Source of the DNA: an uncultured Bacilli bacterium
GTDB taxonomy: Bacteria; Bacillota_I; Bacilli_A; RF39; UBA660
Assembly (NCBI GenBank): GCA_944331715.1
Contig: CALVIP010000001.1
Coordinates: 11,067 to 75,066, forward strand
Direction: 5' to 3'
DNA: 64,000 nucleotides
Below, in pieces: positions 6,228 to 51,307 of this stretch. The number at the start of each line of letters is the position of its first letter. Position 1 is the first letter of the stretch. The translations under genes were made by a program, and so were the position numbers. The notes under the pieces were generated by a model. The model was not told the DNA's origin. It did no database searches and worked only from the letters and a program-made list of their open reading frames with translations.

Positions 6228-6241
6228 AACTTCATCCCCTT

Positions 6242-6905: not shown

Positions 6906-6921
6906 TCACAGTTAGTTTAAA

Positions 6922-12481: not shown

Positions 12482-12509
12482 AAGGACTCTATAAAAATAG
12501 AATCCTTTT
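12481..12509. terminator. bidirectional hairpin between convergent genes
   Basis: AAAGGAcTCTAT-aaaa-ATAGAaTCCTTT, 11 bp with one mismatch, with A/T runs on both sides. Confidence 0.6.
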
Positions 12510-12512
12510 CAT

Positions 12513-32826: not shown

Positions 32827-33609
32827 CTATACTTCAGTTATTATTCCTAAATCAATAAGCATAATACCAATTAAAGAAAGTGCATTAAAATATTTATTAT
32901 TTAAATATTCTTCTGATTCTTTTCTAAATATTTTTAAATTTTCCTTTTTAAAATTTGATGGATCATATTTTCTTATTCCATAAGAATACATTGTTCTATG
33001 CATATTCTCTATCGCTAACATAAGTGATTTTTCATCTATATCAGTTAATTCAGGTATTATTTCTTTCATCTTCTTTTTAGCATCCGTTGCACTACTAAAA
33101 TTAGTTTTCCAAAATTGTTTAATAAAATTTGATAATTCAAAACTTTCAACGCAAGGATAACTGAGTAATAATAATCCATTCATATCATAATCATTATCTA
33201 GGGAACTTGTAAAAGTATTAAGTGCTTTCAAAACAACATCACTAGTATTTGAATCTGCATCTCTATCCCATAAAATATATATAGGTACATTTTTCAAACT
33301 TCTATTGTACTCTTTCTTTAAAAGATTATACAATTTATCTTTATAATTTTTATCTTCCATAATTGTTTTTATATTTGAATTAGATGTATTAGCAACAATT
33401 ATAGTTGAATTTTTATTATTTTTACTTTCAAATTTGTCTTTCATTACTTTATTTCTTCTAACTTGAACATAATTATAATCCAAAATCTTTGTAAAAATGT
33501 GCTTTAATAATTTAAATTCTTCCTTTTCCCCTTCTACTACTATAACAACTTCACCAATTGATTTATTTTTATTAATCTTTAAACTCTTTATTGTATTTTG
33601 GCATTCCAT
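32827..33609 (-). CDS. divergent RloB/Toprim-like protein (partner of the upstream AAA ATPase)
   Basis: VVIVVEGEKEEFKLL (CEGexTE-like), ILWDRDAD (DxD), SYPCVESFELSNF (like RloB sNPcFElW). SD GGAG precedes the ATG at 33609. 38-nt overlap with the ATPase 3' end. Confidence 0.6.
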   Translation of the reverse strand: MECQNTIKSLKINKNKSIGEVVIVVEGEKEEFKLLKHIFTKILDYNYVQVRRNKVMKDKFESKNNKNSTIIVANTSNSNIKTIMEDKNYKDKLYNLLKKEYNRSLKNVPIYILWDRDADSNTSDVVLKALNTFTSSLDNDYDMNGLLLLSYPCVESFELSNFIKQFWKTNFSSATDAKKKMKEIIPELTDIDEKSLMLAIENMHRTMYSYGIRKYDPSNFKKENLKIFRKESEEYLNNKYFNALSLIGIMLIDLGIITEV

Positions 33610-34735
33610 CAAACACTCCATTTAAATACATTTTCTCTATATTTTGTGATTCTCTTGGATTCTCATCTGAAAATCTTTTAATTAGAGTACCTTCTTTAGC
33701 ATCAAATTTAAATGAATAAATTTGGTCTGGTCTTAAAATTGAAGTATCTAATAAATTAGTAGAATGAGAAGTAAAAAATATTTGTGAATTTCCACTATTA
33801 TTAAAGAAATATTTTATTAAAGCTTCTTCTAATTCATTATGAAGTCCACTACTAAATTCATCAACAATAATAATAGAATTATTTTTAGTTACATAATTAA
33901 TAGGTAAAATCATATTCATAAAAGATTTATTACCAGTAGATTCAAGAGGTAAAGGCATTACAAAATTAGTGCCTTTCTTTTTTAAACCAATTGTTTCTTT
34001 AGTAGAATTTATAACTATTGTTTTATCAGTATTAGAAAACTGTTTATTAAATACAACTTCACTATTATAACCTAATTTTTCAATAAGTTTATTCAATTTA
34101 GTTGCATCATTACTTTCAGCATATTTTTCTATAATTTGTTCTGGTAGTTTTACTGGATTATATGACTTTATAGTTCTTCTTCCAAATAAACAGTTAATAT
34201 ATAGAGAGTTTTTTAAAAAATCAAACCATTTATTTAAAACTATATCATTATTAAATCTTGTATTATAATATTCTAATTTTAATAAAGCTAAGCTTGGATT
34301 AATATTATCATTATCTTTTTCTTCTCCAAAATAAGTTTTACCATTTTTCTTTAATCTTTCAAGCTTTAATTCATTATTAACAAATAATTTTTCTGAATTA
34401 ATTTCATTACCTTCAAATTCAACAGAATATTTAATATCATTACCATCAACATTAAATGTATAAACCAAACTAAATTTAGTACCTTTAGTATACATTGATT
34501 TTTTTACTATAAAATTTTGTTCAGTATTATCTAATAATAAGTCAAATAATAATACTATTGCTTGTAATACTTGAGTCTTACCAGAAGCGTTTTCACCAAC
34601 AAAAAGTGCTCCTTTTAATACTCTATTATCACCAACATTTGTTTCGTTTAATATTTTAGAATTAGTAGCTTTAAAATCAAAAGTTGTTTCTTTTATAAAA
34701 GTTGTATAATCTTTTAATGTAATTCCTGTTAGCAC
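33572..34735 (-). CDS. AAA_15/AAA_21-type (ABC-like) ATPase, AbiL/PARIS-class
   Basis: Walker A GENASGKTQ, Walker B IIIVDEFSSGLH, then FFTSHSTNLL. SD AGGAAGG lies 8 nt before GTG 34735. Confidence 0.75.
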   Translation of the reverse strand: MLTGITLKDYTTFIKETTFDFKATNSKILNETNVGDNRVLKGALFVGENASGKTQVLQAIVLLFDLLLDNTEQNFIVKKSMYTKGTKFSLVYTFNVDGNDIKYSVEFEGNEINSEKLFVNNELKLERLKKNGKTYFGEEKDNDNINPSLALLKLEYYNTRFNNDIVLNKWFDFLKNSLYINCLFGRRTIKSYNPVKLPEQIIEKYAESNDATKLNKLIEKLGYNSEVVFNKQFSNTDKTIVINSTKETIGLKKKGTNFVMPLPLESTGNKSFMNMILPINYVTKNNSIIIVDEFSSGLHNELEEALIKYFFNNSGNSQIFFTSHSTNLLDTSILRPDQIYSFKFDAKEGTLIKRFSDENPRESQNIEKMYLNGVFDGMPKYNKEFKD

Positions 34736-34897
34736 TTCTATCACCTTCCTACATTATATTATATTAAATAAATGTAAAAAAAATACAATTAATTTTATTT
34801 AAATGTATTTTTTTTACACTATTATACATTGTTTTCAATATATGTCAATATTCAAAAAGAAATAATCATAACTTCTCATTATATACACACTATATAT

Positions 34898-36202: not shown

Positions 36203-37285
36203 TTATGTATTTTTATAAAAAGAACAGTTTTTATCATGGGAATTAATAATACCTATCGCCTGTAAATAAGAATAAATAATGGTACTTCCTACGAATTTCA
36301 TACCTCTTTTCTTTAAATCCTTCGATATAGCATCTGATAAATCGTTAGTAGTCTTATCTGTTTCATAAATTATTTTATCTTCAGTAAATTCTTTTAAATA
36401 ATTATAAAAACTACCATACTCATTCTTTATATCTCTAAAAATATTAGCATTACTTATACTAGCTTTTATTTTTAATTTATTCCTAATAATATCTTTGTTA
36501 TCTAGTAATTCATTAATCTTTTTATCATCATAGGACCAAACTTTATCTAAATCAAAATTATCATAAGCTTTCCTAAAACTCTCTCTTTTATTTAAAACAC
36601 ATTCCCAAGATAGTCCTGCTTGAAATGATTCTAATATTAACATTTCAAATAAATATTTATCATTAAAGTTAGGTATTCCCCACTCTTCATCGTGATATTT
36701 AATGTATATTGGATTATTTAAATTACACCACTTACATCTTTTCATAATGCTGTATGCTGTTCCTTTCTTTGGAATAAATAATTTTTCCATATTAACTTTT
36801 TCGTGTTTTAATAAATAAATTTTCTTATCAATACCACCTGCATAACCAGTTAAACTACCATTAGATCCTACTACTCTATGACACGGTATAATTATAGAAA
36901 TAGGATTATGACTAACTGCACCACCTACCGCTTGACTAGACATCTTTTTAAGACCTTTTTGTTTAGCGATAGTATCTGCAATATCTTTATAAGTAATAAC
37001 TTCTCCATAAGGTATTTCACAAAGTATCTTCCAAACACTTTTTCTAAAGTTACTACCTAAAGGATTTAAATCAAGTTCATTTATACTAGGCTCTTCTCCC
37101 TTAAAATATCTATCTAGCCACTCTTTAGTCTTAATTAATATTTCTTTTTCTTCCTCTTTTATTTCATCTTTTAAGCAAGAAAAATAATATTTCTGGCCTT
37201 CTATCCATAAACCTATTAGTTTATTGTTTTGGGAAGCTAGTAAAATATCTCCTATTGGAGATTTATAATGAGTAGTATAAATCAT
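36203..37285 (-). CDS. fusion of methylated-DNA--protein-cysteine methyltransferase (Ogt/MGMT) and DNA-3-methyladenine glycosylase I (Tag)
   Basis: N-terminal half has the IIIPCHRVVGSNGSLTGYAGG MGMT active site. C-terminal half has CKWC...YHDEEWGIP...FEMLILESFQAGLSW... (Tag). The ATG at 37285 lies 4 nt after the toxN stop (TGA-TAAA-ATG). Confidence 0.8.
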   Translation of the reverse strand: MIYTTHYKSPIGDILLASQNNKLIGLWIEGQKYYFSCLKDEIKEEEKEILIKTKEWLDRYFKGEEPSINELDLNPLGSNFRKSVWKILCEIPYGEVITYKDIADTIAKQKGLKKMSSQAVGGAVSHNPISIIIPCHRVVGSNGSLTGYAGGIDKKIYLLKHEKVNMEKLFIPKKGTAYSIMKRCKWCNLNNPIYIKYHDEEWGIPNFNDKYLFEMLILESFQAGLSWECVLNKRESFRKAYDNFDLDKVWSYDDKKINELLDNKDIIRNKLKIKASISNANIFRDIKNEYGSFYNYLKEFTEDKIIYETDKTTNDLSDAISKDLKKRGMKFVGSTIIYSYLQAIGIINSHDKNCSFYKNT

Positions 37286-37289
37286 TTTA

Positions 37290-37808
37290 TCACCCACTAA
37301 CTTTTTGCTTATTATATTCCCTACATTTTTCTTCTAATAAAGGAAAATTGCAACATCTATCCCTAACATTTTTAGGTAATTTATCAGCTTTATATAAATT
37401 ATACAATAACTTAGATTTAGTATTAATAACTTTTTTATTAGCAGTTAACCATCTAAGTTGATTTCTAAGTAGTTCTATTCTAAACATCTCACTATTTTCA
37501 TTAGCCTTTTTATCCAAATCAAATTCAACATAATTATTACTAGTAATTGGAATCATATTATTAAAATTAACTACACCAAGTTCACCATTATTTATTTTAA
37601 TTAAATCTAAAGTGTTTCTTAAACTTTTATGCTTTGGCTTTGGTGAAGATAAAGGAGCAAAGTACTCACACTTACCTATCGTAAATAATACACCTATAAA
37701 AGGTCTTAAATCTTTTGTACCTGCATTATATGAAACCTTATTATCATATTTTCTCAAATAATCACAATAAAGAGAATCAACTTTTACTATTCTTAATTTT
37801 TTATACAT
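37290..37808 (-). CDS. toxN: type III toxin-antitoxin system ToxN/AbiQ-family endoribonuclease
   Basis: SD GGAGGTG precedes the ATG at 37808. RPFIGVLFTIGKCEYFAPLSSPKPKH...NFNNMIPI...CNFPLLEEKCREY closely parallels ToxN (…YLAPLTSPKKWH…CNFSLLEEKYRDF) as I remember it. Confidence 0.85.
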   Translation of the reverse strand: MYKKLRIVKVDSLYCDYLRKYDNKVSYNAGTKDLRPFIGVLFTIGKCEYFAPLSSPKPKHKSLRNTLDLIKINNGELGVVNFNNMIPITSNNYVEFDLDKKANENSEMFRIELLRNQLRWLTANKKVINTKSKLLYNLYKADKLPKNVRDRCCNFPLLEEKCREYNKQKVSG

Positions 37809-37923
37809 AAGCACCTCCATCTAAATCAATTTTTCTTATTTATTTCTTTTATAAATTAGTGTACTATAGAGAATATATGTTCGTCAATATATAAATTTAA
37901 ATATTTTATCATACAAAATAAAA

Positions 37924-37945
37924 GATTAGAGTTTGCTCTCTAACC
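37924..37945 (-). terminator. hairpin plus U-run separating the repeat RNA from toxN
   Basis: Minus strand UUAGAG-6nt-CUCUAA (37943-37926), followed by UCUUUUAUUUUGU. Confidence 0.5.
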
Positions 37946-37947
37946 TA

Positions 37948-38066
37948 CTTTTTTAACTGCCATTTATAGAGCTGGCTTCACTCACTTTTTTAGCTGCCAT
38001 TTATAGAGCTGGCTTCACTCGCTTTTTTAGCTGCCATTTAAGGCTGGCTTCACCTGCTTTTTTAAT
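37948..38066 (-). ncRNA. toxI: ToxI/antiQ-like antitoxin RNA: 3 full plus 1 partial tandem repeats (37, 37, 35 nt)
   Basis: Units on the plus strand: 37948-37984 CTTTTTTAACTGCCATTTATAGAGCTGGCTTCACTCA; 37985-38021 CTTTTTTAGCTGCCATTTATAGAGCTGGCTTCACTCG; 38022-38056 CTTTTTTAGCTGCCATTTAAGGCTGGCTTCACCTG; then CTTTTTTAAT. They lie directly upstream (minus strand) of the terminator and toxN. Confidence 0.8.
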
Positions 38067-38163
38067 ATTATATGCAAAATTAGCATAACATAATCACTTA
38101 TGTGCTTATAATATACCATATTTTTTTAATGAAGTCTATATATTTTTTTACCATCAACACTAA

Positions 38164-39672
38164 TTAAAAATTACTATATTTCTTAAGTTCACTTCTAAAT
38201 GCAGTTCGCCTTGAATATTTTTGATAATAATTATCTATAAATTTCTCTTTATCATCAACAATCCCATTCGCTTCCATAACTTCGCCTAAAGATACAACTA
38301 GTTTTGCTGCTTTATAATATGATTTTCTATGATTTCCTTCAACTATTGCAGTTACTCTTTTATCTATTACTTCTTCTAGCCAAGTTAAATATTTATCTTT
38401 ATCCAAAAGTTCAAAATTATCTTTCCATTTATTAAATATTAAAGAATAATTATCATCTAAAAACAAAGTGTTATCTTTTATCTTAAGTCTTGAGAAAATA
38501 TCTTCTAAAACATTTAAAAACAGCCCAGATGAAATGTTATTATTTAAAACTAATATCCATAAATATACTGCTGTTTCAATGAAAGAATAAGACCAACCAA
38601 GAGATTTTTTATTGCTTAAACATATATTATAAAACTCCTCGAAATTGCCTAAAAAGAATTGAAGATAACTATAAGTATCTTTATCTACATAATTCTTATT
38701 TAATTCATTACTTTTATTACTATTTGTATTTCCTTTATTAGAGCTTATAATCTTATTAATCTTTTCTTTATATTTTAAATAATATCCATTATTAATTACT
38801 CTAAGTAAATTTGCTACTGTACTATTAGATTCAAAAGACTCAATTATATACATTTCTTTATTACTACTATCATACTTTGCCATAAACAATAATATATCAT
38901 TTCTTATAGTTAAATCTTTATCTAAATAAGATAAAGCAAGATTACCTATTCTTATCACTTCATCTATTCTTTCTTCCTTAACCAAATAATCAAATATATC
39001 AAGATATATTTTAGGGTGATTTACTGCAAAATCTTTAATATATTTTCCATAATTATTAAAGTTGTTATAAACTAAAGTTTCTTTTAATAATCTATAAGAA
39101 ATATCATCTTGTTTATCTATTAAAAGATTAATCCATGATGTAAAAAAGTCGTCAAGCTCAGTTAAAATTTCTGTACCTAATTTAAAAGAATCTTCGACAG
39201 AAACATCCTTAAAGTTTTCATTTTTAAAATAATCATATATATTTTTCGCTCTCAAACTTTTAGGTGAAGACTGATAAGTAGCATAAATTGCATAAGTACA
39301 TATAGTATATACATTTATATTAATTAAACATTCTTCTTGTAATTCTTTTAAAGATATTTCAAAAAAATCTCCACCATCATCATCTAAAAATTGATAATTA
39401 GTATAAATAATTAAATCTAATAACTCTTTAGCATACTTATATTCTTTATGATTAACTAAATTAACTGCATAATATGTCGCTTCTTTTATTAAATCTCCTA
39501 CATTATCATCATCACTATACTCCCAGATCCAGTCTCCCCAATAATAATTATCATAATCCTCATAACCTGTCGCATGAAAATAAAGATCTAAATCATCAAT
39601 CATTTTAAACTTGGTTTTATATTCTTCTATTTTTGATTCTATATTTTCTAACTTATCATCATTACCAAGCAT
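38164..39672 (-). CDS. hypothetical all-helical protein (502 aa), partner of the PrimPol-helicase gene
   Basis: ORF track. No catalytic motif recognised. No SD before ATG 39672, and the frame stays open upstream to 39780. Confidence 0.6.
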   Translation of the reverse strand: MLGNDDKLENIESKIEEYKTKFKMIDDLDLYFHATGYEDYDNYYWGDWIWEYSDDDNVGDLIKEATYYAVNLVNHKEYKYAKELLDLIIYTNYQFLDDDGGDFFEISLKELQEECLININVYTICTYAIYATYQSSPKSLRAKNIYDYFKNENFKDVSVEDSFKLGTEILTELDDFFTSWINLLIDKQDDISYRLLKETLVYNNFNNYGKYIKDFAVNHPKIYLDIFDYLVKEERIDEVIRIGNLALSYLDKDLTIRNDILLFMAKYDSSNKEMYIIESFESNSTVANLLRVINNGYYLKYKEKINKIISSNKGNTNSNKSNELNKNYVDKDTYSYLQFFLGNFEEFYNICLSNKKSLGWSYSFIETAVYLWILVLNNNISSGLFLNVLEDIFSRLKIKDNTLFLDDNYSLIFNKWKDNFELLDKDKYLTWLEEVIDKRVTAIVEGNHRKSYYKAAKLVVSLGEVMEANGIVDDKEKFIDNYYQKYSRRTAFRSELKKYSNF

Positions 39673-39794
39673 ATAAATAACTTCATCATATTTACTTTTT
39701 GGTATCTTTCTAATTAAATTATTAACAATATCTAATATTTCTTGTTTTTCTCTATTTTTAAGTTCATCATTTACTTTTTTTTAAAAATTCACTA

Positions 39795-42152
39795 CTATTC
39801 ATAACTTCCCTCACTAACTATTTCATATCCTAACTTTTCATAGGTACTCTTTCTTTTTAAAAACATATTTCTTGTCTTAGCAAAGTTATCATCAACATAA
39901 TCATATATTAATATCTCTTTTTTATTTTCATTTTTTCTATGAAGTCTTCCTGCATATTGTATAACTCTAGTCTTACCTGATATCGGCATAGTAAGAAACA
40001 AAACATCTAATTTATCATCATCAAATCCTTCTCCTATATATGAGCCTGTAGAAATTATAATCTTATTACTATTATTTAGAGTTATTTCATCATTTAATTC
40101 TTTATACTTTTTAAGAACTTTCTTACCTATACCTCCATAATATTTAAAAATATTACTAGTATACTTACTTAGTTTATCATAAATATAATCTAAATGTTCT
40201 AATCTTTCCGTTAATACTAAAATATTCTTACCATTAAGATACTCTTTTTTAATATCTTTAATTATACTTTCACTTCTTAAAATATCTTTTGCTATAAAAT
40301 CATTTATTTCATTTAACTCATAATTATCTATTTTAGGATCAGTAAAATTCAAATGACTTTTTCTAACAATTACTTTCATAGGGATATTTAACTCTTTATT
40401 GAATTTTAAAGTATCTACCTTATACCTAATATCACCACATTGCATTTTTATAATAGGTGTATGGCCATTTTCTCTTTCAGGTGTTGCAGATATTCCATAG
40501 ACATATTTAGCATTTCCTGTATTTATAGCTTGTTCAAAAGTATAAGCAGCAGTATGATGACATTCATCTATAATAATCATTCCATAATTTTTAGCAATAT
40601 CTAAAACATCTCCATTATTCCATAAAGATTTTATACTAGCAACATCTATTATATTAGTAATATTTTTCTTTTTACCACTTATCTCTCCTACTTCATCTAT
40701 ATTAAGAAAATCTTTAATTCTATCTTTCCACTGTTCAAGTAATTGAAGTTTATTAACAAGTATTAAAGTATTTACTTTTCTTTCTTCTATCAGTTTACAT
40801 CCTATAACTGTTTTACCGAATCCCGTTGGAGCACAAAGTATTCCATTATCATATTTAAGGAGTTTATCTAAAGCAAGTTGTTGTTCTTCTCTTAATTTAC
40901 CGTTAAAGCTAACTGTAATTTTTTTACCTTCACTTCTCTTATCTGTTTTAATTATTTTTATATTATTAGTTTTACAAAGATTTTCTAAATATTCATAAGT
41001 ACCTCTCGGTAACTTTAAATACTTATCATCTTCTTTACTACAGTCAATTACCATAGGCACATTATAAACGGACATTCTTAAGCTTTGTTTTTTATAAAAC
41101 TCTGGATTAGCAAAAGTAGCAAGCCTTCTAAAACTATTTTTAACAATTGAATTTAATCCTGCTTTATCAATATAGACCATATCATTTAATATTACTTTTA
41201 TACTTTTAGGATAGTCAATTTTATTTTTACTTTTAGTTAAAACTTCTTTATTCATATTAACTATCTCATGTCCTATATCTATAGTTTCATTACTTAATTT
41301 TTCTATTGTTTCAAGTACTTCACTCTCTGTTAATTTATGAATAGACTTTAAATATTCTAATTGATTTTCCACTTTCATAAAGTTTCTATCAATAAATATT
41401 GTATTACCATATTTAGAAGGTTCATTTTGAAAAGGCAAAGCTATTAAATTTCCATAACCTCCTTTAGGTAGGGTATCTTGATTAGGAAACATTCTATCAA
41501 AAGAAGATATAGATAAATTACTTATTTCCATAGTTTTAGATAATAACAAACTTCCTAATTTCCTTGCTATTATTGCTTTTATATTAGTAGAAAAGAAAAT
41601 CCATATATGTATTCCATTACCCGATCTACTTCTTTCTAATACAGCAGGTATTTTGTATTCATCACATATATTAAGAAATGCAAGAACTTCTTCTTTAATG
41701 TCATTATCACTATTTTTATTATCAAAATCTAAAGCTAAAAAATAACAAGTATCGTCAGTTAGTAAAGGATAAATTCCTATAGGTTTATTTTCATACATAT
41801 GCTTATAAATAACTTCTTTTGATAATGGTTCATTTTCTCTATATTGACAAGTTTTACATTTCTTACCCATAGTTTTATTACAAACACCTTTTTTCCATTC
41901 ATTTAGACAAGCAGGGATATAATATTTAATATTAGGATTTTCTTTATTAATAGATAAATATGGATATACATCATCTCTACCTTTAAAATAGCTCATAAAT
42001 ATTTTAACTTTTTCTTCTCTTGATAAAGATGATACTTCTTCCTTACTATCTAAAACATTAAGCATTGCTTTTAATTCATTTAGTTCGTTTTTAATATTAT
42101 TTATTGCAATTTCTTTTTCTTTAATTTTATTAATTATTTGATCTCTATTCAT
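39795..42152 (-). CDS. archaeo-eukaryotic primase (PrimPol)-like domain fused to an SF2 ResIII/DEAH-box helicase
   Basis: 785 aa. Coiled coil aa 1-40. Cys cluster C82/C91/C99/C102. AEP motifs LALDFD (139-144), SGNGIHIW (177-184), SFDRMFPNQD (217-226). Helicase motifs APTGFGKT (441-448), IIDECHH (527-533), SATPER (555-560), QYAGRLHR. SD GGGGAG upstream. Confidence 0.8.
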   Translation of the reverse strand: MNRDQIINKIKEKEIAINNIKNELNELKAMLNVLDSKEEVSSLSREEKVKIFMSYFKGRDDVYPYLSINKENPNIKYYIPACLNEWKKGVCNKTMGKKCKTCQYRENEPLSKEVIYKHMYENKPIGIYPLLTDDTCYFLALDFDNKNSDNDIKEEVLAFLNICDEYKIPAVLERSRSGNGIHIWIFFSTNIKAIIARKLGSLLLSKTMEISNLSISSFDRMFPNQDTLPKGGYGNLIALPFQNEPSKYGNTIFIDRNFMKVENQLEYLKSIHKLTESEVLETIEKLSNETIDIGHEIVNMNKEVLTKSKNKIDYPKSIKVILNDMVYIDKAGLNSIVKNSFRRLATFANPEFYKKQSLRMSVYNVPMVIDCSKEDDKYLKLPRGTYEYLENLCKTNNIKIIKTDKRSEGKKITVSFNGKLREEQQLALDKLLKYDNGILCAPTGFGKTVIGCKLIEERKVNTLILVNKLQLLEQWKDRIKDFLNIDEVGEISGKKKNITNIIDVASIKSLWNNGDVLDIAKNYGMIIIDECHHTAAYTFEQAINTGNAKYVYGISATPERENGHTPIIKMQCGDIRYKVDTLKFNKELNIPMKVIVRKSHLNFTDPKIDNYELNEINDFIAKDILRSESIIKDIKKEYLNGKNILVLTERLEHLDYIYDKLSKYTSNIFKYYGGIGKKVLKKYKELNDEITLNNSNKIIISTGSYIGEGFDDDKLDVLFLTMPISGKTRVIQYAGRLHRKNENKKEILIYDYVDDNFAKTRNMFLKRKSTYEKLGYEIVSEGSYE

Positions 42153-42181
42153 ATTGACTCCCCTTTTAATATTTGACGTAT

Positions 42182-42210
42182 ATTCTAATATTTTTTATAA
42201 GGAAAGTCAA
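42182..42210 (-). promoter_or_regulatory. sigma-A-type promoter of the PrimPol-helicase operon
   Basis: Minus strand TTGACT (42210-42205), 17 nt, TAGAAT (42187-42182). Confidence 0.5.
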
Positions 42211-42282
42211 TGAAAAAGATGGCAATAATTACCAACTCTAATTTCAAATTATTCTAATTCTTTTAATCTTTTATCTACTTCA

Positions 42283-42942
42283 TCAAAAAAAACTATAGAC
42301 TGTTGTACAACTTTCTGAATTCGATGGTGTATCTTTAATATGATTTAAATGAATGTTTTTTGCATACTTACGAACTTGTTCTAAAGAACCATATTTAGTT
42401 AATCTATGAAATATTTTCTCATCATTTTTTCTATATCTATATTTTGAACCTTTTGCCTTAAAGTATTCATTTAACTTGCTTTCATAAGATTTTCTATCCA
42501 TACCAGTATCTATATAATTAAAATATAGTAAAAACCAATACTCAATAGCTTGGTTAGACCACAAAGGAATATACCCATTTCTTTCACACATTTCTATTGC
42601 TTTATTAAATGATTCACTACTAAAACTATCTTTATCAAATACAACAAATATTTTTCCATAAGGTATTGTAGAAATTTTATATTCATCTATTTCGTTCAAT
42701 ATATCTTGAGTAGATTTTACTAAAGATGTCGTATTCATTCCCATACCTACTATTTTCACTTTTAACTTATAATCATCTTCTATCAATTCATTAATAGCTG
42801 CAACCGCTCCTTCAAAATAGTTAGGTTCTGTTTCTTTACCTTCACAAACTATAAGCCAATTACTAGATTTTTGTTTTCTAATATTTTCTTTTCTTTTATT
42901 TCTTTCTGCTCTTCGTTTTTTAAATAAATCATCACTACCCAT
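42283..42942 (-). CDS. RloB-like protein (AbiLi-type Toprim-like partner)
   Basis: LIVCEGKETEPNYFEG, VVFDKDSF, IPLWSNQAIEYWFLLYF. ATG lies 5 nt after the ATPase stop. Confidence 0.75.
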   Translation of the reverse strand: MGSDDLFKKRRAERNKRKENIRKQKSSNWLIVCEGKETEPNYFEGAVAAINELIEDDYKLKVKIVGMGMNTTSLVKSTQDILNEIDEYKISTIPYGKIFVVFDKDSFSSESFNKAIEMCERNGYIPLWSNQAIEYWFLLYFNYIDTGMDRKSYESKLNEYFKAKGSKYRYRKNDEKIFHRLTKYGSLEQVRKYAKNIHLNHIKDTPSNSESCTTVYSFF

Positions 42943-42949
42943 AATTCAC

Positions 42950-44155
42950 CTACTTATCTTCGTATGGAATAGCACCAAACTTTCCAGTTAAATATCTCTT
43001 CTCATAATCAGCATCTACTCTTAAATTTCTAAATTCTGATAATGAATATAATCTAGCTTTCCCATATTTGTCTTTTTCTACTAAATAAAGTTCATCTCTT
43101 CTTAAATCATCACTATTGAATAAAAAAGTTGAATGAGCTGTATAAATTAATTGAGCATTATTTTTATTTATTTTTTTATCTTTATACATATTAACAATTT
43201 TTTTAAATAATAACGGATGAAATTTGACATCTAACTCATCAATACATAATAACCCACCATTTTCTAAATTATTTAAAATAGTTGGCATGATATTAAATAT
43301 TTTAATAGTACCATCAGATTCATATTGTAATGGTAGTAATATATGATTTTTATTATCAATATTTTTATGTACTCCACTAAGCTTATAAGATTTATTTTCT
43401 CCACTATCACTAATCTCATCAATTTTAATACCTAATAAACAAGGATCAAATTCATTAATTATTTGTTGAAATCTTTCGTATAGTAAATTATTTTGAGATA
43501 AAAGATTAATACTTGTTTGAGGTTGAAAAACACTTTCTACTCTAAAATCAAACTTATTAATATAATTATAAATATCTCTTAAAATTCCCTTTTCTTCTTT
43601 AATCGCTACATTACTTAAAATTAATAATTTATTTGTACTTAAATTAACATTATCACTAAAAAGATTCCAAGTCTTTTCATAATTAGCATAAGAAGAACCA
43701 AAATTAACCAAGTCTTTATTTCTTTCAAAAATAATTTTTTGAGTTGCTTTAGTAGTAGAAGAAAATTTCTTTTTATATAGCCACTCCTCATCAAAGCCAT
43801 CTTTATTCATTGAAAATCCATATCTATATTCATAATCACCAAGAGAAATTGAAATTTCAAATTCACTATTTTCATTTCTAGCATTATTACTAAATGCAAA
43901 AGAAAATGTAGGTAAATCTTTATTAATATCTATTCTATTTGACATTTTAATAGTTTCAAACATAAAATGTAATGCCTCAAGTGCACTACTTTTACCAGAA
44001 GCATTCGCACCATGAATTTCTATAACTGGTAAAATTTTATTTCCATTAATATCAATTGTGGAATTAATGTGTCTTTTTTCCCAAGTTGCCATTAAATCCA
44101 AAACTGTCTCATCATAAAAACATTTATAATTTTTAAATTTAAATTGCAATAACAT
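42950..44155 (-). CDS. AAA_21-type (ABC-like) ATPase, AbiLii-type
   Basis: Walker A GANASGKSS, Walker B LLCIDELDVKFH, IYTAHSTFLF. SD AGGAAGGTG precedes the ATG at 44155. Confidence 0.75.
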   Translation of the reverse strand: MLLQFKFKNYKCFYDETVLDLMATWEKRHINSTIDINGNKILPVIEIHGANASGKSSALEALHFMFETIKMSNRIDINKDLPTFSFAFSNNARNENSEFEISISLGDYEYRYGFSMNKDGFDEEWLYKKKFSSTTKATQKIIFERNKDLVNFGSSYANYEKTWNLFSDNVNLSTNKLLILSNVAIKEEKGILRDIYNYINKFDFRVESVFQPQTSINLLSQNNLLYERFQQIINEFDPCLLGIKIDEISDSGENKSYKLSGVHKNIDNKNHILLPLQYESDGTIKIFNIMPTILNNLENGGLLCIDELDVKFHPLLFKKIVNMYKDKKINKNNAQLIYTAHSTFLFNSDDLRRDELYLVEKDKYGKARLYSLSEFRNLRVDADYEKRYLTGKFGAIPYEDK

Positions 44156-44345
44156 AATTAACACCTTCCTTTTGGCTATATTTTATCACTTTTTCATATT
44201 TTTGCAATATTTTAGGAGATTTTTTCTCTTAAAGTGTATTATTTCTTTTATATTTTATGCAATTTGTTTAATTATATGCATGTAAAATATATATACAAAT
44301 ATATTAATTCATAAAAAAACAGAACTGCTTCCAACTAAAACAATT

Positions 44346-45200
44346 CTATTTTTTATAAGCTTTCTCATTTTTACTTATTATTTCAGAATAAATATTTTCT
44401 ATCTTTTCTAATTCATTAAATTGTTCTTTAGGAGCATTTCTATTTACCATATCATTTTTAATCTTATTTATTCTTACATCATAATTAAGACAAATTTGAT
44501 CATTACTTTCATCTCTTAAGTCTTGCAATAAAGATAAATAATTATCAAGAGCCACAGGAATAGTTTTAAACTCTTTATCTATTGGTACAATATAATTTAC
44601 TTTTATACCAAGAAACAAACACTTAAAAATAAAGTCAGGTAATAAGTCATAACATTTATTATGTGTCTCTATATTTGATAATTTGGCAGTCTTACTTGAA
44701 AGTATTTCTTTTTCGTATCTTTCCCTTGTTGCAAGTAAACTTGCTAAATTTCCTCTTACCACTACATTTATAACAATATCATAATTTTTAGGTATATTAC
44801 TTATTAAGTCTATTAAACTATAATCAATTGGAGCTTTCTCCCTCAATACAGAATAACCATTTTGTATAGCATAAGAAAATAGTTCATCTCCCCATAAATG
44901 AGCATCAAAATTTGTAAGAGTTGCATAATCTGTTGGATATTTATCTAATATTTCTTTAGAGTACTTATGAAATTGACGATAATTATCAGAATTTATAATT
45001 ATATAATTAGATAAATTTGTACTATCTATATATGTAGTTTTTCCACAACCAGGTTGTCCAACTACAAACATAATAGATGAATTATTTTGAAGAGATTTAT
45101 TTACAAATAAATTTTCTTTAAGTTGTTCTAAAACTATTCTATGCTCATCTTCGAATAATTTATATTTTTCAATATTATCTTTTAATGTTTTGTTTTTCAA
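44346..45200 (-). CDS. zeta-toxin-family P-loop kinase-like protein with a ~80-aa C-terminal helical extension
   Basis: VVGQPGCGKTTY...IINSDNYRQFHKY (zeta-toxin-like Walker A plus the xDxxR region). SD AAGGAG lies 9 nt before TTG 45200. Confidence 0.6.
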   Translation of the reverse strand: MKNKTLKDNIEKYKLFEDEHRIVLEQLKENLFVNKSLQNNSSIMFVVGQPGCGKTTYIDSTNLSNYIIINSDNYRQFHKYSKEILDKYPTDYATLTNFDAHLWGDELFSYAIQNGYSVLREKAPIDYSLIDLISNIPKNYDIVINVVVRGNLASLLATRERYEKEILSSKTAKLSNIETHNKCYDLLPDFIFKCLFLGIKVNYIVPIDKEFKTIPVALDNYLSLLQDLRDESNDQICLNYDVRINKIKNDMVNRNAPKEQFNELEKIENIYSEIISKNEKAYKK

Positions 45201-45252
45201 TATTAACAACTCCTTCGTTTAACTATATTATACTATACAATTAATTAAACAC

Positions 45253-45288
45253 AAACAAAAAGCGGAGCCATAAGGCTCCTTCAGGGGG
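45253..45288 (-). terminator. rho-independent terminator with a conserved CCCCCUGAAG 5' flank
   Basis: Minus strand CCCCCUGAAG-GAGCC-uuau-GGCUC-CGCUUUUUGUUUG. Confidence 0.6.
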
Positions 45289-45403
45289 AAATATTATTAT
45301 CAGTTCGTAACAATTTAATAATTTGTTAAAGTCTTACAAAATAAGGCTTTTTCTTTTATCATAATTTACCAAAGTTTATAAAAATAACTTTATTTTTGTG
45401 GTT

Positions 45404-45432
45404 TAGTATCTAATTTTGGTATCTAGAAAAAT
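45404..45432. repeat. att-associated repeats (TAGTATCTA, TGGTATCTA) including a 16-mer shared with 54763-54778
   Basis: TTGGTATCTAGAAAAA at 45416-45431 is identical to 54763-54778. Confidence 0.6.
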
Positions 45433-45445
45433 AATCATAATTTAA

Positions 45446-48400
45446 TCATTTTTTTCGATTATAAACCATTATTTTATTTCTCTTTGTTAAAACAAACGAT
45501 GAAATAACATTTTCTGATTTTAATTTTTGCAATATCTCTAATAAATTTTGATCAACATCTATTGAAAAATTATTGTTACCAACTCCTATATAATCAAAAC
45601 CATTATTAATCATACATAAATAGTTGTTAGTTACTTCAATATTTATTTCTTCCTTGATTTTGTTTAAATAAGAATATTTTTTACTATCTTCAATATTAGA
45701 ACTAAAGATTAAGTCATTAGAAACATCACTTCTTAAATTATATTTATCATCATATGCAAGGTTAAATAATAATTCAACGTTTAGCATTGTATTTTTTATA
45801 ACTTCATTTTCAAACAATATTGATTTAATATCTTCATCTAACTCTATATTTTCAACTAATTCATTTGCTATATCTTCTATATCAAAATCATCACAATTTT
45901 CAATATAGTATTCTTTATTTAAATTAATAAATAAAACTAATAAGTCTAATGATTTACTCTTAATATAATTAAAATTATCTAAAGTTAATTCTAAAATATT
46001 ATTAGTAATGATTATTTTTAATTTATCATACTTATATTCAAAATTTATATTTTCTAAGTTTGAAATTTTACAATCAAAAGAATTTATGCTTTTTTCTAAA
46101 GTATTTAAGCTAATATACTTGTTATTTATTAAATTTACTAAAAAATCTTTTGGATTATCCAATAAGTCTACATATTCTATACTATCAATATTATTAATAA
46201 TACCAGCTAACTTTTCTGAAATATCTTTTATAAAATTATATAAACATATTACATTATTCCAATTATTATCAATTAAATCATTATTCAAAACGCATTCATA
46301 ATAATCACTAGATATTTTGCCTAAATCTTTTATTTTAGTTTTTTCCTTAATAATAATTTTATTTTTAATATTATCATCAATATTATCGTTATTAAGTATA
46401 TTCAATATAACATCTTCATCATTGCTTTGGTTATCTAATTTATCATAAACGCAATCAACATATAAATCAAAATTATCGTATATATTTTTTTTCATAATAT
46501 TTAATCTTTCATCTTCTATAATTGTTAAAAACTTATTTGAAAATTGTTCGCTTGAATTAATAGTATTTTCTAACAATAATTTCAACATATTTTCATTGAT
46601 TTCATATAAATTGTTTTTTAATATAAAATCAGAAAATTCTTTAGTACAATTTTCATCAATATTTTTAAATTTTATATTTTGTTTAATTATGGTTTCTTTA
46701 TGATTGTCATCTAACAGGGAAAAAAGGTTATAAAATTTATTATGCATACTAATATAACTAATAAATGTATTATCTGTATTTAATAAAAATTTAGGATTAC
46801 TTAGAAATATTTTTACCCATTTGTCAATATAATCTCTATTTTTACTATTTTTCAAATAACATTTTTCCCATATATTATTTTTCTTCAGCAATAAACTATT
46901 TATAAAAGATTTGCTTAGTTCACTTTTTTCTAAATAACTATCTATAAAGTCTAATTTTTCATCTGTAATGATTTCAAACTGTAATAAAATTTTATTTTTT
47001 ACACTTGATTCAACTTTGTTTTTATTATCAAATATATAATCAAACAAGTCGAAATTCAATATACTATCTGATGAATAGTCAAATATATCTAATCTATTAA
47101 CAATTTCATTTAAATTATCTAAATGGTAAGAATAATTTTCCATTTTACTATCCTTCTTTACATTTTTTACAAACTGCATATCTTGGATAGTTAAATTTCC
47201 CTCTTTAAACAATGTAATGTAATCATAATAATCACTAGAGACAAGACCACGTTTTAAAATAAACATTTCAAAATCGTTTAATTCTTCAGTTATAATGTCA
47301 ATACCATATTTCTCAATTAGTTCTTTGAGTGACATTTCTTTTATAGCTCTAATATTTTTTTCTATCAAAGTAATTTCTTTTTGTTTTTCTTCAATAACGG
47401 CTTCTTTATCACCATTTAAATTATCTAATCTTTCTATATAAGAACGTTTTCCTCCAAAAACATCAAAAATTTGTTCCTCGTTAAAATTAGCATAAGGGTA
47501 ACTACGTTTATCAAACGTCATTTTTGTATTTTTAATTTTGTCTATATCAAAATCATCTCTTAAAAATTCAGAAACATTACATTCTGCGTTATTGAAGTTT
47601 AATTTATAATTATTAAGAGTATCACTAGATAGTTTAACTAAGTTCATTATTAATACTTGTTTTAATTCAAGTACATTTAATAATTTTTCGTTTTGAATGT
47701 TATCAATTTCAGTTTGTAAATTGTCATTATCTAATTTTAATTTTTCTGTTAGTTTATTTATAATTTCGTTTTTATTTTGAATTATATTTGGTAGTGTTCC
47801 TTCTCCCTTTAACATCAATGCATATTTTTGAGGATATAAATTTTTATAAAAAAGCATTGCCATTAACTTACAATTATCTAAATCTTTATCAATAAATTTA
47901 TCACTAAATAAAATAAAATCAGCCATTATATTATTTATTGTTCTCATATCATCAACAAATATAGATATATTATTAATAAACTTTTTATCTATCTCATAAT
48001 ACATTTCATTTTCTTGTTCACCATATATGCTCTTAAATTTATCCCATATTATTTCATTTGAATTTGATAATGAAGATACAGGAATAATAGGAATAGTTTT
48101 ATCAAAAAATTTGGTTCTTTCAGTATTTTTCTCAAAAAAATCATCTTTTATTGCATAAATAAAACTTATTTTTCTTTTAATTCTTGAACAAGTATTTAAT
48201 AAATAATTTAGTTCTTTTAGCTTTTCAATAATAAATAATGCTTCATTAAATCTATCAATATCTTCAAAAATTACAACATTATAATCAGAGCACTGAAAAA
48301 AGTAAATAATTTCGTCCAAATATTTGTTAAATATCGACTCTGTTTTCCCATTTATTTCTATTTCAGCATCCTTGTATTTTAATTTACTTATATAAAAATT

Positions 48401-49057
48401 GTCTTTAATGAACTCACGTATTTTATAAATACAGAAAGCAAAAAACGTAACTATTATTCCATATAATAAACTAGTAAATAAATAATTTATATAAATATTA
48501 ATTGATTTTACTTTAAAATTTAAAACCTTTAACACTTCGTTAATATTATTGTATGGTTCAAAAAATCCTTCAAAGAAATTAGGAGCAAAAATAAATAAGC
48601 AAATTAAAACAATCAAAACAAACACAAAAGTTTCAATAAACATATCAGATTTTGAATATTTTGTAAGTCTCTTAAATCTTGATTGCGGAACTTTTTCTTG
48701 ATCTGTTTGATATAGTAATTGTTGCAAAATACTTTTTTCTATTGTTTGATGATATTCTTCTGCTTTTCTTTTTCCAATATTTTCATTATTTTTTCCATAA
48801 GAACCTAGAGTTATATTTATATATTTTCTTTTATTTTTAAAATAAGTTTTTAAAAAACTACTTTTACCAGCACCATAATTCCCAAATATTGCAATATTAT
48901 GTATATCCTCATTTTCTAAACTATAATCTAATATTTCTGAATATTCGTCGATATCAGTTGCGTTTGATGTTGGAGCTAAATTAATAAAATCCTGATAGTT
49001 ATCTACCTTTTTTAATTTTTTCACTTCGTTCACTTCCTTACTACTAAAAAACGCCAA
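45446..49057 (-). CDS. KAP-family P-loop NTPase with TM helices inserted in the NTPase domain (YobI-like, ~1200 aa)
   Basis: Walker A GNYGAGKSS (aa 59-67). Two hydrophobic helices (aa ~140-160 and ~193-212). Walker B VVIFEDIDRF (261-270). About 900 aa of helical C-terminal region. The ORF-track start is TTG 49057; GTG 49024 behind AAGGAAG is a better candidate. Confidence 0.7.
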   Translation of the reverse strand: MAFFSSKEVNEVKKLKKVDNYQDFINLAPTSNATDIDEYSEILDYSLENEDIHNIAIFGNYGAGKSSFLKTYFKNKRKYINITLGSYGKNNENIGKRKAEEYHQTIEKSILQQLLYQTDQEKVPQSRFKRLTKYSKSDMFIETFVFVLIVLICLFIFAPNFFEGFFEPYNNINEVLKVLNFKVKSINIYINYLFTSLLYGIIVTFFAFCIYKIREFIKDNFYISKLKYKDAEIEINGKTESIFNKYLDEIIYFFQCSDYNVVIFEDIDRFNEALFIIEKLKELNYLLNTCSRIKRKISFIYAIKDDFFEKNTERTKFFDKTIPIIPVSSLSNSNEIIWDKFKSIYGEQENEMYYEIDKKFINNISIFVDDMRTINNIMADFILFSDKFIDKDLDNCKLMAMLFYKNLYPQKYALMLKGEGTLPNIIQNKNEIINKLTEKLKLDNDNLQTEIDNIQNEKLLNVLELKQVLIMNLVKLSSDTLNNYKLNFNNAECNVSEFLRDDFDIDKIKNTKMTFDKRSYPYANFNEEQIFDVFGGKRSYIERLDNLNGDKEAVIEEKQKEITLIEKNIRAIKEMSLKELIEKYGIDIITEELNDFEMFILKRGLVSSDYYDYITLFKEGNLTIQDMQFVKNVKKDSKMENYSYHLDNLNEIVNRLDIFDYSSDSILNFDLFDYIFDNKNKVESSVKNKILLQFEIITDEKLDFIDSYLEKSELSKSFINSLLLKKNNIWEKCYLKNSKNRDYIDKWVKIFLSNPKFLLNTDNTFISYISMHNKFYNLFSLLDDNHKETIIKQNIKFKNIDENCTKEFSDFILKNNLYEINENMLKLLLENTINSSEQFSNKFLTIIEDERLNIMKKNIYDNFDLYVDCVYDKLDNQSNDEDVILNILNNDNIDDNIKNKIIIKEKTKIKDLGKISSDYYECVLNNDLIDNNWNNVICLYNFIKDISEKLAGIINNIDSIEYVDLLDNPKDFLVNLINNKYISLNTLEKSINSFDCKISNLENINFEYKYDKLKIIITNNILELTLDNFNYIKSKSLDLLVLFINLNKEYYIENCDDFDIEDIANELVENIELDEDIKSILFENEVIKNTMLNVELLFNLAYDDKYNLRSDVSNDLIFSSNIEDSKKYSYLNKIKEEINIEVTNNYLCMINNGFDYIGVGNNNFSIDVDQNLLEILQKLKSENVISSFVLTKRNKIMVYNRKK

Positions 49058-49212: not shown

Positions 49213-49761
49213 TTACTCAAATATTATTTTTTCATTCTCATCAATAAATATTGCTTGATTATTTGTTAAATATATATCATCATTAGAATTAATTACTCCA
49301 TTAGGTGTTCCTTTATCTGAGTGTACATCTAATATATTTTCAATAAATCCAAGTCCATCTTTATATTTTCCACTAGCACAAACACTACCTGCACTAACGC
49401 CAATATAAATACCACCATTTTCTATATATTTATCTATAACTGGTTTTATATTTAATTCTTTAATTCTATCAACTAAATACTTTGTACTTCCTCCACAAAC
49501 ATATATTGCATCATATTTATTAATCTCTTCTTGTGATATTAATTTATGCATATCATAAACTGTTATATTATTATCTGTAATACCACATTTAGTTAAATCA
49601 TCTAAACATCCTGATAGTATTCTAACTGCATCTGGATCATTAGCTGCTGTTATTATAAAAAGTATTTTAGCATCTTTTACATCTACGTTTAATAATTCTA
49701 TAAATTTATTCATTATATTTTCATTATCAAAACCAGTACTTGTTAAAAGTATTTTTTTCAT
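49213..49761 (-). CDS. S51 (peptidase E)-fold / class I glutamine-amidotransferase-like hydrolase
   Basis: 182 aa. IYVCGGSTKYL and nucleophile elbow GVSAGS. TAATG overlap with the upstream gene. Confidence 0.65.
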   Translation of the reverse strand: MKKILLTSTGFDNENIMNKFIELLNVDVKDAKILFIITAANDPDAVRILSGCLDDLTKCGITDNNITVYDMHKLISQEEINKYDAIYVCGGSTKYLVDRIKELNIKPVIDKYIENGGIYIGVSAGSVCASGKYKDGLGFIENILDVHSDKGTPNGVINSNDDIYLTNNQAIFIDENEKIIFE

Positions 49762-50222
49762 TACTTCACCTTCTTATTTTCATTTTGAACTTCAACATAC
49801 ATTGTTGGTATGTTTGATTTTTTAATTTCTTCCTCTATTTTTTGTTGCATATTTTTAGCATTACTAAAGTCAGTATTTCTTAATTTAGTTCTTTCAAGTA
49901 ATAAATCATCATTAATATGTAGATACACTATCAAATCACAGTCCAATAAAACAGTTCCAAACATCGGTGTACCATGTTTAATACTTAATTTTGTCCTAAC
50001 AAGTTCATCCATCTTATTTCCTATTTCTTGAGTCCAAGGTGTTCTACAAACATATTCTGTTTCTTCTTCAGTTAGTAATGGAAATATTTCTTCATCCATG
50101 TCTAATCCTATATTTGTACCTTTTATTAAAGTTGTCTTACCTGTACAAGTAGCTCCTAAAACACATATTCTTTTGTCTCTATTTTCTTCAAATATTTCAA
50201 TTAATTGTTCTATATTAGACAT
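49761..50222 (-). CDS. small P-loop NTPase / nucleotide-kinase-like protein
   Basis: 153 aa. Walker A GATCTGKTT at aa 23-31. Confidence 0.55.
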   Translation of the reverse strand: MSNIEQLIEIFEENRDKRICVLGATCTGKTTLIKGTNIGLDMDEEIFPLLTEEETEYVCRTPWTQEIGNKMDELVRTKLSIKHGTPMFGTVLLDCDLIVYLHINDDLLLERTKLRNTDFSNAKNMQQKIEEEIKKSNIPTMYVEVQNENKKVK

Positions 50223-50271
50223 TTAAATCACCTACTTTTCTTTTTTATATTCTTCAACTTTCTTGTGATTA

Positions 50272-50958: not shown

Positions 50959-50959
50959 A

Positions 50960-51307
50960 TTATTCCCATGTTCTTTCTAAGTTAATTGTTTCTTTTCTTT
51001 TTAAGGCATCTAATAAATCAATATTATACTTATCTGCAATAGTTAATACATATATAAATACATCTGCTAATTCATCTTTTATATTTGAACTATATTTTTT
51101 ATTTATATCCATTTCCATGTTAGATTCATGTTTCCTTATTTCTTTTGCTAGCTCACCAACTTCTTCAGTTAAATAACATAATAATTCTAATGGAGTATTA
51201 TTATAATTATTTTCCTTAAGCATACATTTTATATAGTTTTGAATATCAGACATATTACTTGTTTCATTAAGTTTATTTAATTCTTCTCTTATTTTATCTT
51301 TTGTCAT
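50960..51307 (-). CDS. MazG-type all-alpha nucleoside-triphosphate pyrophosphohydrolase
   Basis: 115 aa. TEEVGELAKEIRK ... DELADVFIYVLTIADKYNIDL (ExxE...ExxD metal sites). Confidence 0.75.
   Translation of the reverse strand: MTKDKIREELNKLNETSNMSDIQNYIKCMLKENNYNNTPLELLCYLTEEVGELAKEIRKHESNMEMDINKKYSSNIKDELADVFIYVLTIADKYNIDLLDALKRKETINLERTWE

Follow-up and report, generated by a model that had tools for sequence, protein, structure and literature searches.

The window, as we call the whole 64,000-nt stretch of DNA analysed here, comes from an uncultured Bacilli bacterium and carries on its minus strand two neighbouring open reading frames (ORFs), gene 1 at 39795..42152 (785 aa) and a downstream ORF at 38164..39672 (502 aa), which belongs to gene 2. 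A first-pass annotation, made from the sequence alone, had read them as a two-gene operon encoding a primase-helicase and a helical partner within a defence island, and both ORFs were found again at the coordinates it gave. Judged by its sequence, gene 1 is a member of a catalogued family that fuses an archaeo-eukaryotic primase (AEP) domain, which takes its name from conflict systems called TOTE (for TPR, OB, TBP and Effector), to a superfamily 2 (SF2) helicase, and whose role in conflict is predicted. Its partnership with an unannotated solenoid family (gene 2) and, in relatives, with a cysteine-cluster protein (gene 3) appears to be undescribed in the literature searched. The two genes of the proposed operon are present and coupled, but gene 2 is frameshifted, and the operon as read in the window is not intact.

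Gene 1 combines two enzymatic halves. Residues 47-280 (41313..42014, minus strand, as are all gene 1 coordinates) constitute an AEP-TOTE primase-polymerase domain, whose match to PF22548, the Pfam family called TOTE conflict system, Archaeo-Eukaryotic Primase domain, has E=1.4e-83 and covers 228 of the 230 profile positions. Residues 419-785 (39798..40898) form an XPB/Rad25- and ResIII-like SF2 helicase/translocase, and the other Pfam matches are ResIII (9.7e-26), DEAD and Helicase_C (6.5e-4). By their scores, the AEP-TOTE, ResIII and Helicase_C matches are far beyond chance, and they uphold the AEP-SF2 fusion recognised in the first-pass annotation. The nearest solved structures by sequence are CAPP 7nqd for the AEP (E=1.4e-12) and archaeal XPB/Rad25 2fwr/6p66 for the motor (E=2.6e-20). 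In PADLOC, the sole strong match is the CAS-associated PrimPol profile (6.6e-78), a match to HamB being marginal (2.4e-5, 64 residues), and the weak NCBIfam matches (CAPP-type PrimPol, XPB, RadD and Hef) all fall far under the curated cut-offs.

Every motif and all four cysteines originally read into gene 1 stand at the residues assigned to them. The primase half holds LALDFD (139-144), SGNGIHIW (177-184) and SFDRMFPNQD (217-226), that is, motif I (DxD, D142/D144), motif II (SGxGxH, S177-H182) and the acidic motif III (D219). The helicase half holds APTGFGKT (441-448), IIDECHH (527-533), SATPER (555-560) and QYAGRLHR (732-739), which provide the Walker A, DExH, SAT and motif VI arginines of motifs I, II, III and VI, in two RecA-like domains. 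In an alignment of 8 sequences from four phyla, including homologs from E. coli, Acinetobacter, Paracoccus and Streptomyces at 31-40% identity, D142/D144, S177/G180/H182, D219, K447/T448, D529-H532 and Q732/R736/R739 are invariant. Because both catalytic sites are invariant across phyla, the gene 1 family is predicted to retain primase and helicase activities. The cluster C82/C91/C99/C102 (41847-41909) lies inside the AEP-TOTE domain, and it is invariant in 19 close homologs, though not in every distant one. Outside the two halves of this basic protein (isoelectric point, pI, 8.8) lie a long N-terminal helix (aa 1-36, 42045..42152), which is a candidate coiled coil or oligomerisation element and the sole N-terminal stretch modelled confidently (predicted local distance difference test, pLDDT, about 90), and a linker or middle region (aa 281-418, 40899..41312) that matches no family in Pfam or NCBIfam. 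The first-pass annotation spoke of five parts in gene 1 while itself naming four.

Gene 2, by contrast with its annotation as a 502-aa gene, turned out to be the remainder of a frameshifted 545-aa gene. Its true start is an ATG at 39802 that overlaps the stop codon of gene 1 (ATGAATAG) and has the ribosome-binding site GAGGGA in front of it. This true 5' end (39767..39802, minus strand) runs in the window for 11 codons and then meets a stop, the frame being shifted by +1 at an A8 homopolymer (39775..39782, minus strand) where relatives have T5A7, T6A6 or T7A6. Deleting one A from the run fuses both pieces into a 545-aa protein whose body extends over 38164..39780 (minus strand). Homologs of 545-549 aa, the closest of them 98% identical, cover 100% of the reconstructed protein. 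The 122-nt "gap" between the two ORFs reads open in the gene 2 frame, family members share a conserved stretch in the first 43 residues, and the first internal ATG, at 39672, from which the 502-aa ORF starts, has no ribosome-binding site. Through the +1 frameshift in the A8 run, the window copy of gene 2 is thus deprived of its start and of 43 codons at its beginning.

A real mutation, inactivating or phase-variable, may underlie this frameshift, or else a single homopolymer error of the assembly. Compared with three close relatives, about 16 kb of the window contains one other frame-changing coding indel, a 5-nt duplication described below, and the assembly is therefore not generally error-prone. 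Homologs of gene 2 that are split into two pieces were also observed at three of the related loci, which are cited here by L numbers (L022 8001-9585, L023 7956-9291 and L030 5-1592). Disruption of the gene 2 frame thus recurs in assemblies, and decay, phase variation or sequencing error could each account for it.

The family to which gene 2 belongs is large. An exhaustive profile search retrieved 1413 representative clusters at E<=1e-3 and 396 at E<=1e-30, nearly all full-length proteins of 530-610 aa that the source records call "hypothetical protein". Searches of Pfam, NCBIfam, PADLOC and PDB sequences, run with the single protein and with sets of 20 and 50 relatives, gave nothing consistent. 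The AlphaFold model (pLDDT 87.9) consists mainly of helical pairs and holds two small beta hairpins, and the protein is thus not all-helical, as had been proposed. With Foldseek, PDB structures and viral models give weak TPR-type matches to SKI3, IFIT5/1, subunits of the APC and SPINDLY. The protein is acidic (pI 4.9), and its invariant positions are mainly aromatic or aliphatic, together with D97, R482 and R492, and form no recognisable catalytic set. Conservation of this kind would fit a binding protein better than an enzyme. An IFIT-like nucleic-acid clamp was considered for gene 2 but not adopted, given the acidity of the protein and the weakness of its fold matches. No match to gene 2 occurs in the plasmid and phage records searched, and a locus scan with a narrower gene 2 alignment returned 2 metagenome loci and zero viral contigs. 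One cultured carrier of the family was seen, Amphibacillus sp. Q70.

One family member, P0274 from a Lachnospiraceae metagenome-assembled genome (L028 8001-10190), bears an N-terminal metallophosphoesterase domain (Pfam 4.1e-6) weakly like PdeM and is followed by a 195-aa gene of unknown function; the fusion suggests that the gene 2 domain can combine with other enzymes.

The relation between the three genes was examined in about fifteen distinct contexts. Gene 1 and gene 2 are coupled, by an overlap of 8-11 nt or by direct abutment, in three Bacilli clades, in which gene 1 is 93-100%, 71-72% and 65% identical to the window copy and gene 2 85-100%, about 50% and 45%. In relatives of the window clade (gene 2 at least 85% identical), gene 1 lies directly upstream with the same 8-nt overlap as in the window. 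A circular 1.5-Mb chromosome of uncultured Bacilli is syntenic with the window through AbiL, gene 1, gene 2 and ToxN, and its gene 2 is intact. The second clade (L069-72 and L021) and the third (L073-74) are both coupled and have a third overlapping gene. With it, the operons span 4648-9134 at L069 and 586-5074 at L073, whereas the intact two-gene operon of L013 (OZ006970.1) occupies 5651-9638. Gene 3, as we call it, encodes a YkgJ/CxxCxxCC cysteine-cluster protein (PF03692) of 164-169 aa and overlaps the end of gene 2 in most Bacilli clades other than that of the window (L069 8628-9134, L073 4580-5074, L075 5377-5871 and L017 6927-7436). It is absent from the window clade, where either ToxIN or DUF952 and NUDIX genes take its place. 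L017 and L031 show the succession gene 2, gene 3, AbiEi, AbiEii and gene 1, which adds a fourth co-localisation of gene 1 and gene 2, at most 2 kb apart.

Both genes also occur apart. In Clostridia and more distant members, gene 2 is found solo, and no hidden gene 2-like ORFs were found beside solo gene 1 homologs. It has to be asked whether the island, being crowded, has simply brought together gene 1 and gene 2 as independent modules of one gene each, which form no two-gene system. Each gene is frequently solo, the gene 2 family with its 1413 clusters shows, in the few contexts that were sampled, mostly no linkage to gene 1, and the window combines an intact gene 1 with a broken gene 2, all of which would fit such an arrangement. 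However, overlap or abutment has been kept in three clades while gene 1 diverged from 100 to 65% identity and gene 2, in step, from 100 to 45%. The fourth co-localisation points the same way, as does the gene junction, where the ribosome-binding site of gene 2 lies inside gene 1 and there is no promoter-sized gap between the genes. We regard chance juxtaposition as decidedly unlikely. Since coupling is kept in several clades while both genes also occur apart, the gene 1-gene 2 link is, from these comparisons, real and old in gut Bacilli, yet facultative. The conservation of the pair, which the first-pass annotation had made a test of its proposal, holds in coupled form within gut Bacilli clades, but this is a narrow group, the arrangement there usually has three genes, and each gene is met solo as well.

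Several contexts of gene 2 deserve mention in their own right. At L075 (1766-8983) and at L009/L018 (around 7868-12511), the gene 2-gene 3 pair appears as cargo by large serine recombinases and Fic/RhuM genes, inserted in an NMT1/ABC-transporter operon, with gene 3 degraded at L009/L018. In two Clostridia lineages (L005-L007 7345-9843 and L022 5859-7544), a Schlafen AlbA_2 plus HATPase_c_4 protein is encoded just upstream of a solo gene 2, and in one Clostridia case the Schlafen-type protein and gene 2 are separated by a TPR-like protein of 257 aa and a DUF6429 protein.

The gene 1 family is widely distributed. A word-indexed search gave at least 7783 homologs (7783 of 8000 candidates match), and the family amounts to thousands of metagenomic clusters. 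Full-length homologs of about 40% identity occur in 98 plasmid records, and plasmid AEP-TOTE domains are practically always parts of such helicase proteins. In the eight records examined, no gene 2-like or TOTE-type partner was found near gene 1 and the contexts all differ. Two of the eight, plasmids of Bacillus thuringiensis and Lacticaseibacillus paracasei, carry disrupted copies. Of 5426 complete E. coli genomes, 876 (16%) carry an ortholog, including O157:H7 (L064 10001-12361), and the solo gene of E. coli O157 is WP_000233452.1. The name that the first-pass annotation gave, "TOTE conflict system ... primase domain", is indeed that of Pfam PF22548 and the PGAP product name of the E. coli ortholog. 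The gene order in E. coli is integrase, helix-turn-helix (HTH) protein, DUF3987/YfjI, Gp2-like (yfjJ-like) protein and then gene 1. In the CP4-57 element of K-12, the equivalent slot after alpA-yfjI-yfjJ holds abpA/abpB (L035 8352-12154), and abpA is annotated as "anti-bacteriophage protein". Elsewhere, homologs follow AbiEi/AbiEii beside a type I restriction-modification (R-M) system and a NERD protein, come after HigB-HTH, or lie beside a type III-like R-M system, and three tyrosine recombinases accompany the Paracoccus homolog; each lineage thus has other neighbours. Among 2.9 million viral contigs, no more than 2 contain full-length relatives, and phage records match the helicase half alone, none of them at full length. 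On these counts gene 1 is not a phage gene.

This distribution bears directly on the possibility that gene 1, instead of being an immune protein, serves an integrative or plasmid element as its primase-helicase for replication or maintenance, with gene 2, and gene 3 where present, as accessory replication factors. Fusions of AEP and helicase domains are typical of mobile-element replicases (Kazlauskas 2018, PMC5862659), full-length homologs sit on the 98 plasmid records, and the E. coli copies directly follow DUF3987/YfjI and an inovirus Gp2-like protein. The Paracoccus copy beside its three tyrosine recombinases, and the gene 2-gene 3 pair that travels with large serine recombinases, are also what such an origin would predict. 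On the other hand, the operon of the window and of L013 is chromosomal, between AbiL and ToxIN, and no integrase or partition genes adjoin the operon in the neighbour ORF scans. No iterons or inverted repeats were found at 37700-42400 except ToxI-type repeats, and both scans agree with the first-pass annotation on these points. In addition, the helicase is of the XPB/ResIII-type SF2 and not SF3, DnaB or MCM, the family is nearly absent from phage and viral collections, and its neighbours vary by lineage in a cargo-like manner, unlike a replication core. The E. coli K-12 slot that holds abpA/abpB instead likewise tells against a replicase. We hold a replicative role to be unlikely. The first-pass annotation had named, as a sign against its proposal, homologs residing mainly in plasmid or prophage replication modules, and this applies in half, through the plasmid copies and the E. 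coli copies right after replication-like genes. The locus itself has an SF2 helicase, no origin or iterons and no adjacent integrase or partition genes.

The immediate surroundings of the operon are consistent with the defensive neighbourhood first proposed, AbiL, Zeta, Tmn and ToxIN all being found around it. Directly upstream is a separate known system (42283..44164, minus strand), consisting of AbiLi (42950-44164, 404 aa) and AbiLii/RloB (42283-42942, 219 aa). Downstream, at the position of the relatives' gene 3, is a complete type III toxin-antitoxin locus (37290..38065, minus strand), which comprises ToxN/AbiQ (37290-37820; Pfam 3e-44, PADLOC AbiQ 3.7e-36), a terminator-like hairpin (37923-37946) and tandem repeats of 37 nt x 3.3 (37947-38065), all on the minus strand. 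The operon therefore lies, as described at first, between an AbiL-like pair and a type III toxin-antitoxin locus. The repeats match no Rfam family, and an Rfam scan of 37-43 kb, ToxI-type repeats included, gave zero matches. Ahead of gene 1 there is a candidate sigma-70-type promoter (42182..42210, minus strand) composed of TTGACT (42210-42205), a 17-nt spacer and TAGAAT (42187-42182), followed by the ribosome-binding site GGGGAG (42158..42163, minus strand) 5 nt before the ATG. The promoter claimed for the operon is thus present and, with a 10/12 match, is the best-scoring site of the region; but this AT-rich DNA contains 35 promoter-like sites against 40+-6 in shuffled sequence, and since that count is not raised, it is the position of the site that speaks for it.

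Further along the island, a second AbiL-type pair (32827-34744, minus strand) consists of an AbiLi-like ATPase (390 aa) overlapping a 264-aa ORF without a Pfam match. At 44346-49057 (minus strand), there is a Zeta-toxin-like kinase (287 aa) with no obvious epsilon partner, beside a YobI-type ATPase of 1203 aa with a match to the Tmn defence profile of PADLOC (5.8e-63). Just past the island, several small genes with links to nucleotides or DNA (49761-51307, minus strand) encode an AAA_28-like protein, a glycosylase of the UDG superfamily and a MazG-like pyrophosphohydrolase, and there is a DDE transposase at 53385-54248. A 364-aa ORF at 36203-37297 (minus strand) joins ogt (methylguanine methyltransferase) and tag (3-methyladenine glycosylase), which at L013 are two overlapping genes; relative to L013, it contains the 5-nt duplication (ACAGCAT ACAGCAT) near 36753, and it may be a real fusion or an indel.

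The proximity of this repair ORF, two genes downstream of the operon, raises the question of whether gene 1 could be a DNA-damage tolerance or repair enzyme, one that combines PrimPol-like re-priming with XPB-like opening, benefits the host and is merely borne by the island. Its helicase is nearest to XPB/Rad25 repair helicases, with the weak NCBIfam matches to RadD and Hef, and the PrimPol domain of DRT7/PPRT also aids tolerance of oxidative damage (PMC12439943). The PdeM to which the metallophosphoesterase part of the gene 2 fusion is weakly similar is a ligase-associated damage-response nuclease. However, the family spreads patchily and horizontally, and its solo copies lie among insertion sequence elements, toxin-antitoxin and R-M genes, unlike those of a housekeeping gene. 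Moreover, ToxIN separates ogt-tag from the operon, ogt-tag is present in relatives regardless of the state of the operon, and the repair-helicase scores in NCBIfam are all far under the curated cut-offs. We give this explanation little credence.

Among known systems, the closest in name is TOTE, for which we follow the outline in PMC12458937, citing Aravind, Iyer et al. 2022. In that outline, TOTE systems comprise a fusion of TPR and cold-shock domains, genes for TATA-binding-protein-like proteins and often RNase H domains. The AEP of gene 1 is PF22548, so that the Effector component is represented, and a repeat-helical partner is encoded alongside. Unlike in the outlined systems, neither the operon nor the DNA up to about 6 kb away contains a TPR-OB fusion or a TBP-like gene, the gene 2 partner is weakly TPR-like and unannotated, and gene 3 of the relatives is a YkgJ-type cysteine-cluster protein. 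None of gene 2 and 50 family members matches an OB domain (the CSD, S1 and TOTE-OB models of Pfam), and a TPR model is reached by 1 of the 50. The four short strands in the predicted structure of gene 2 do not seem to make up a five-stranded OB barrel. No TPR-OB protein was found among the window neighbours, and neither an OB component nor a TBP-family match in the ORFs scanned at 29.6-54.2 kb or in the called genes of related loci. As TOTE is outlined there, gene 2 could be a functional analogue of its TPR component, but it is not a demonstrable member of that family.

Other systems share one half of gene 1. CAPP (PDB 7nqd/7nqe/7nqf) has the closest solved AEP by sequence and the same catalytic motifs, and both the NCBIfam PrimPol_Msp and the PADLOC profiles match; gene 1, however, is fused to an SF2 helicase instead of belonging to a CRISPR adaptation context and scores 85.9 with NF040561 against an equivalog cut-off of 200, and no cas genes were found among its scanned neighbours. 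DRT7/UG10 (PPRT), compared here within the AEP superfamily only, is an immune protein with an N-terminal AEP/PrimPol that has experimental support (PMC9226505, PMC12439943), but its partner domain is a reverse transcriptase whereas that of gene 1 is an SF2 helicase. Its immune role indicates that AEP polymerases serve in phage defence, and CAPP is another use of AEP domains in immunity. For prokaryotic PriS-like primases, which lie next to loci of Argonaute and type III-B CRISPR, an explanation is still lacking (PMC5862659). The helicase half resembles archaeal XPB/Rad25 and the translocases of type III Res in all core motifs (2fwr, ResIII), although gene 1 has no nuclease, methylase or Bax1-like partner and is fused to a polymerase. 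Mobile-element AEP primase-helicases (pRN1 ORF904-type, PrimPol-PV1) show the same AEP-helicase fusion and carriage by plasmids or islands, but with SF3, MCM or RepA in place of SF2, and gene 1 lacks a winged-helix origin-binding domain. AbpAB (yfjL-yfjK of CP4-57) is a two-gene helicase module of 538 and 729 aa in the island slot shared with the gene 1 ortholog. AbpA, however, is a Cap4-nuclease plus HamA protein, AbpB has no AEP domain, and an identification of the operon with AbpAB/Hachiman was rejected because BLASTP, hhalign and Pfam show no significant homology despite similar sizes and slot.

Weighing these findings, we lean slightly towards the view that gene 1 is a self-contained AEP-TOTE accessory enzyme, carried as cargo of defence islands and mobile elements, that acts against phages or invading DNA, with gene 2 as its regulator. 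In this process, the XPB-like SF2 motor would load on DNA and open it or translocate along it, and the CAPP-like primase-polymerase domain would then start and extend strands at the opened DNA. As a result, the replication of the invader might be derailed, or a nucleic-acid product might be made that stops the invader. Gene 2 would be a non-enzymatic regulator, or a sensor or adaptor, of the basic gene 1 protein, in the role of the TPR component, its acidic solenoid holding or directing the basic enzyme, and gene 3 would complete the operon in sister clades. The window copy probably represents a reduced, and possibly impaired, form of a variant that appears to be undescribed, the conflict system itself being one predicted by computation.

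A bolder proposal, possible but doubtful, is that the three-gene form of the sister clades is an undescribed immune system in its own right. Here, the effector would work by making DNA or RNA de novo on the unwound DNA of the invader, the solenoid would be a sensor of infection that releases the enzyme, the cysteine-cluster protein would bring in a redox or methylation input and the A-run at the junction of gene 1 and gene 2 would act as a phase switch. The redox or methylation input is guessed from the relatives of gene 3, which are FliB and DpdM, the latter a candidate phage preQ1 DNA methyltransferase among the YkgJ relatives (PMC10516641).

Several observations weigh against a defensive gene 1 regulated by gene 2. 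Gene 2 is missing from the vicinity of the closest gene 1 relatives beyond the clade (80-83% identity), one of which follows AbiEi/AbiEii and one an AAA_14/DUF4143 ATPase, and gene 2 may therefore be dispensable, trans-acting or functionally unrelated. Gene 1 is solo in most lineages, among them Proteobacteria, Actinomycetota and other Bacillota, so that the gene 2 partner is not generally needed across phyla, and for their part gene 2 and the pair of gene 2 and gene 3 are also met where gene 1 is absent. Gene 2 is only weakly TPR-like (Foldseek E>=4e-3, template-modelling score about 0.2), and the predicted structure of gene 1 is of low confidence (pLDDT 43.5) because the 19 input sequences, at least 79% identical, are nearly the same. 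The union of AEP and helicase is the classic architecture of mobile-element replicases, and the plasmid records and the E. coli islands with replication-like genes before gene 1 agree with it. Finally, the defence role is one of guilt by association, since no experimental phenotype for any member of the gene 1 family was found in the literature searched, which accords with what the first-pass annotation had said of AEP-SF2 fusions.

The gene 1 family is widespread, in E. coli, on plasmids across phyla and in metagenomes, and both Pfam and PGAP name it as a conflict component. Should gene 1 be an immune effector, it would act by coupling the synthesis of primers or DNA to the unwinding of DNA. 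To our knowledge, among validated systems, the reverse-transcriptase systems alone come close to such an effector. For the large gene 2 family there is no model in Pfam, NCBIfam or PADLOC, and a Pfam-style definition of it would be useful in itself. The window copy would be a poor template for further work, with gene 2 frameshifted and gene 3 missing, but tractable carriers exist in the E. coli strains that have the ortholog and, for the gene 2 family, in the cultured Amphibacillus sp. Q70. For the partnership itself, the three-gene operon of gut Bacilli offers a concrete target, with intact templates in the two-gene L013 type and the three-gene L069 and L073 types.

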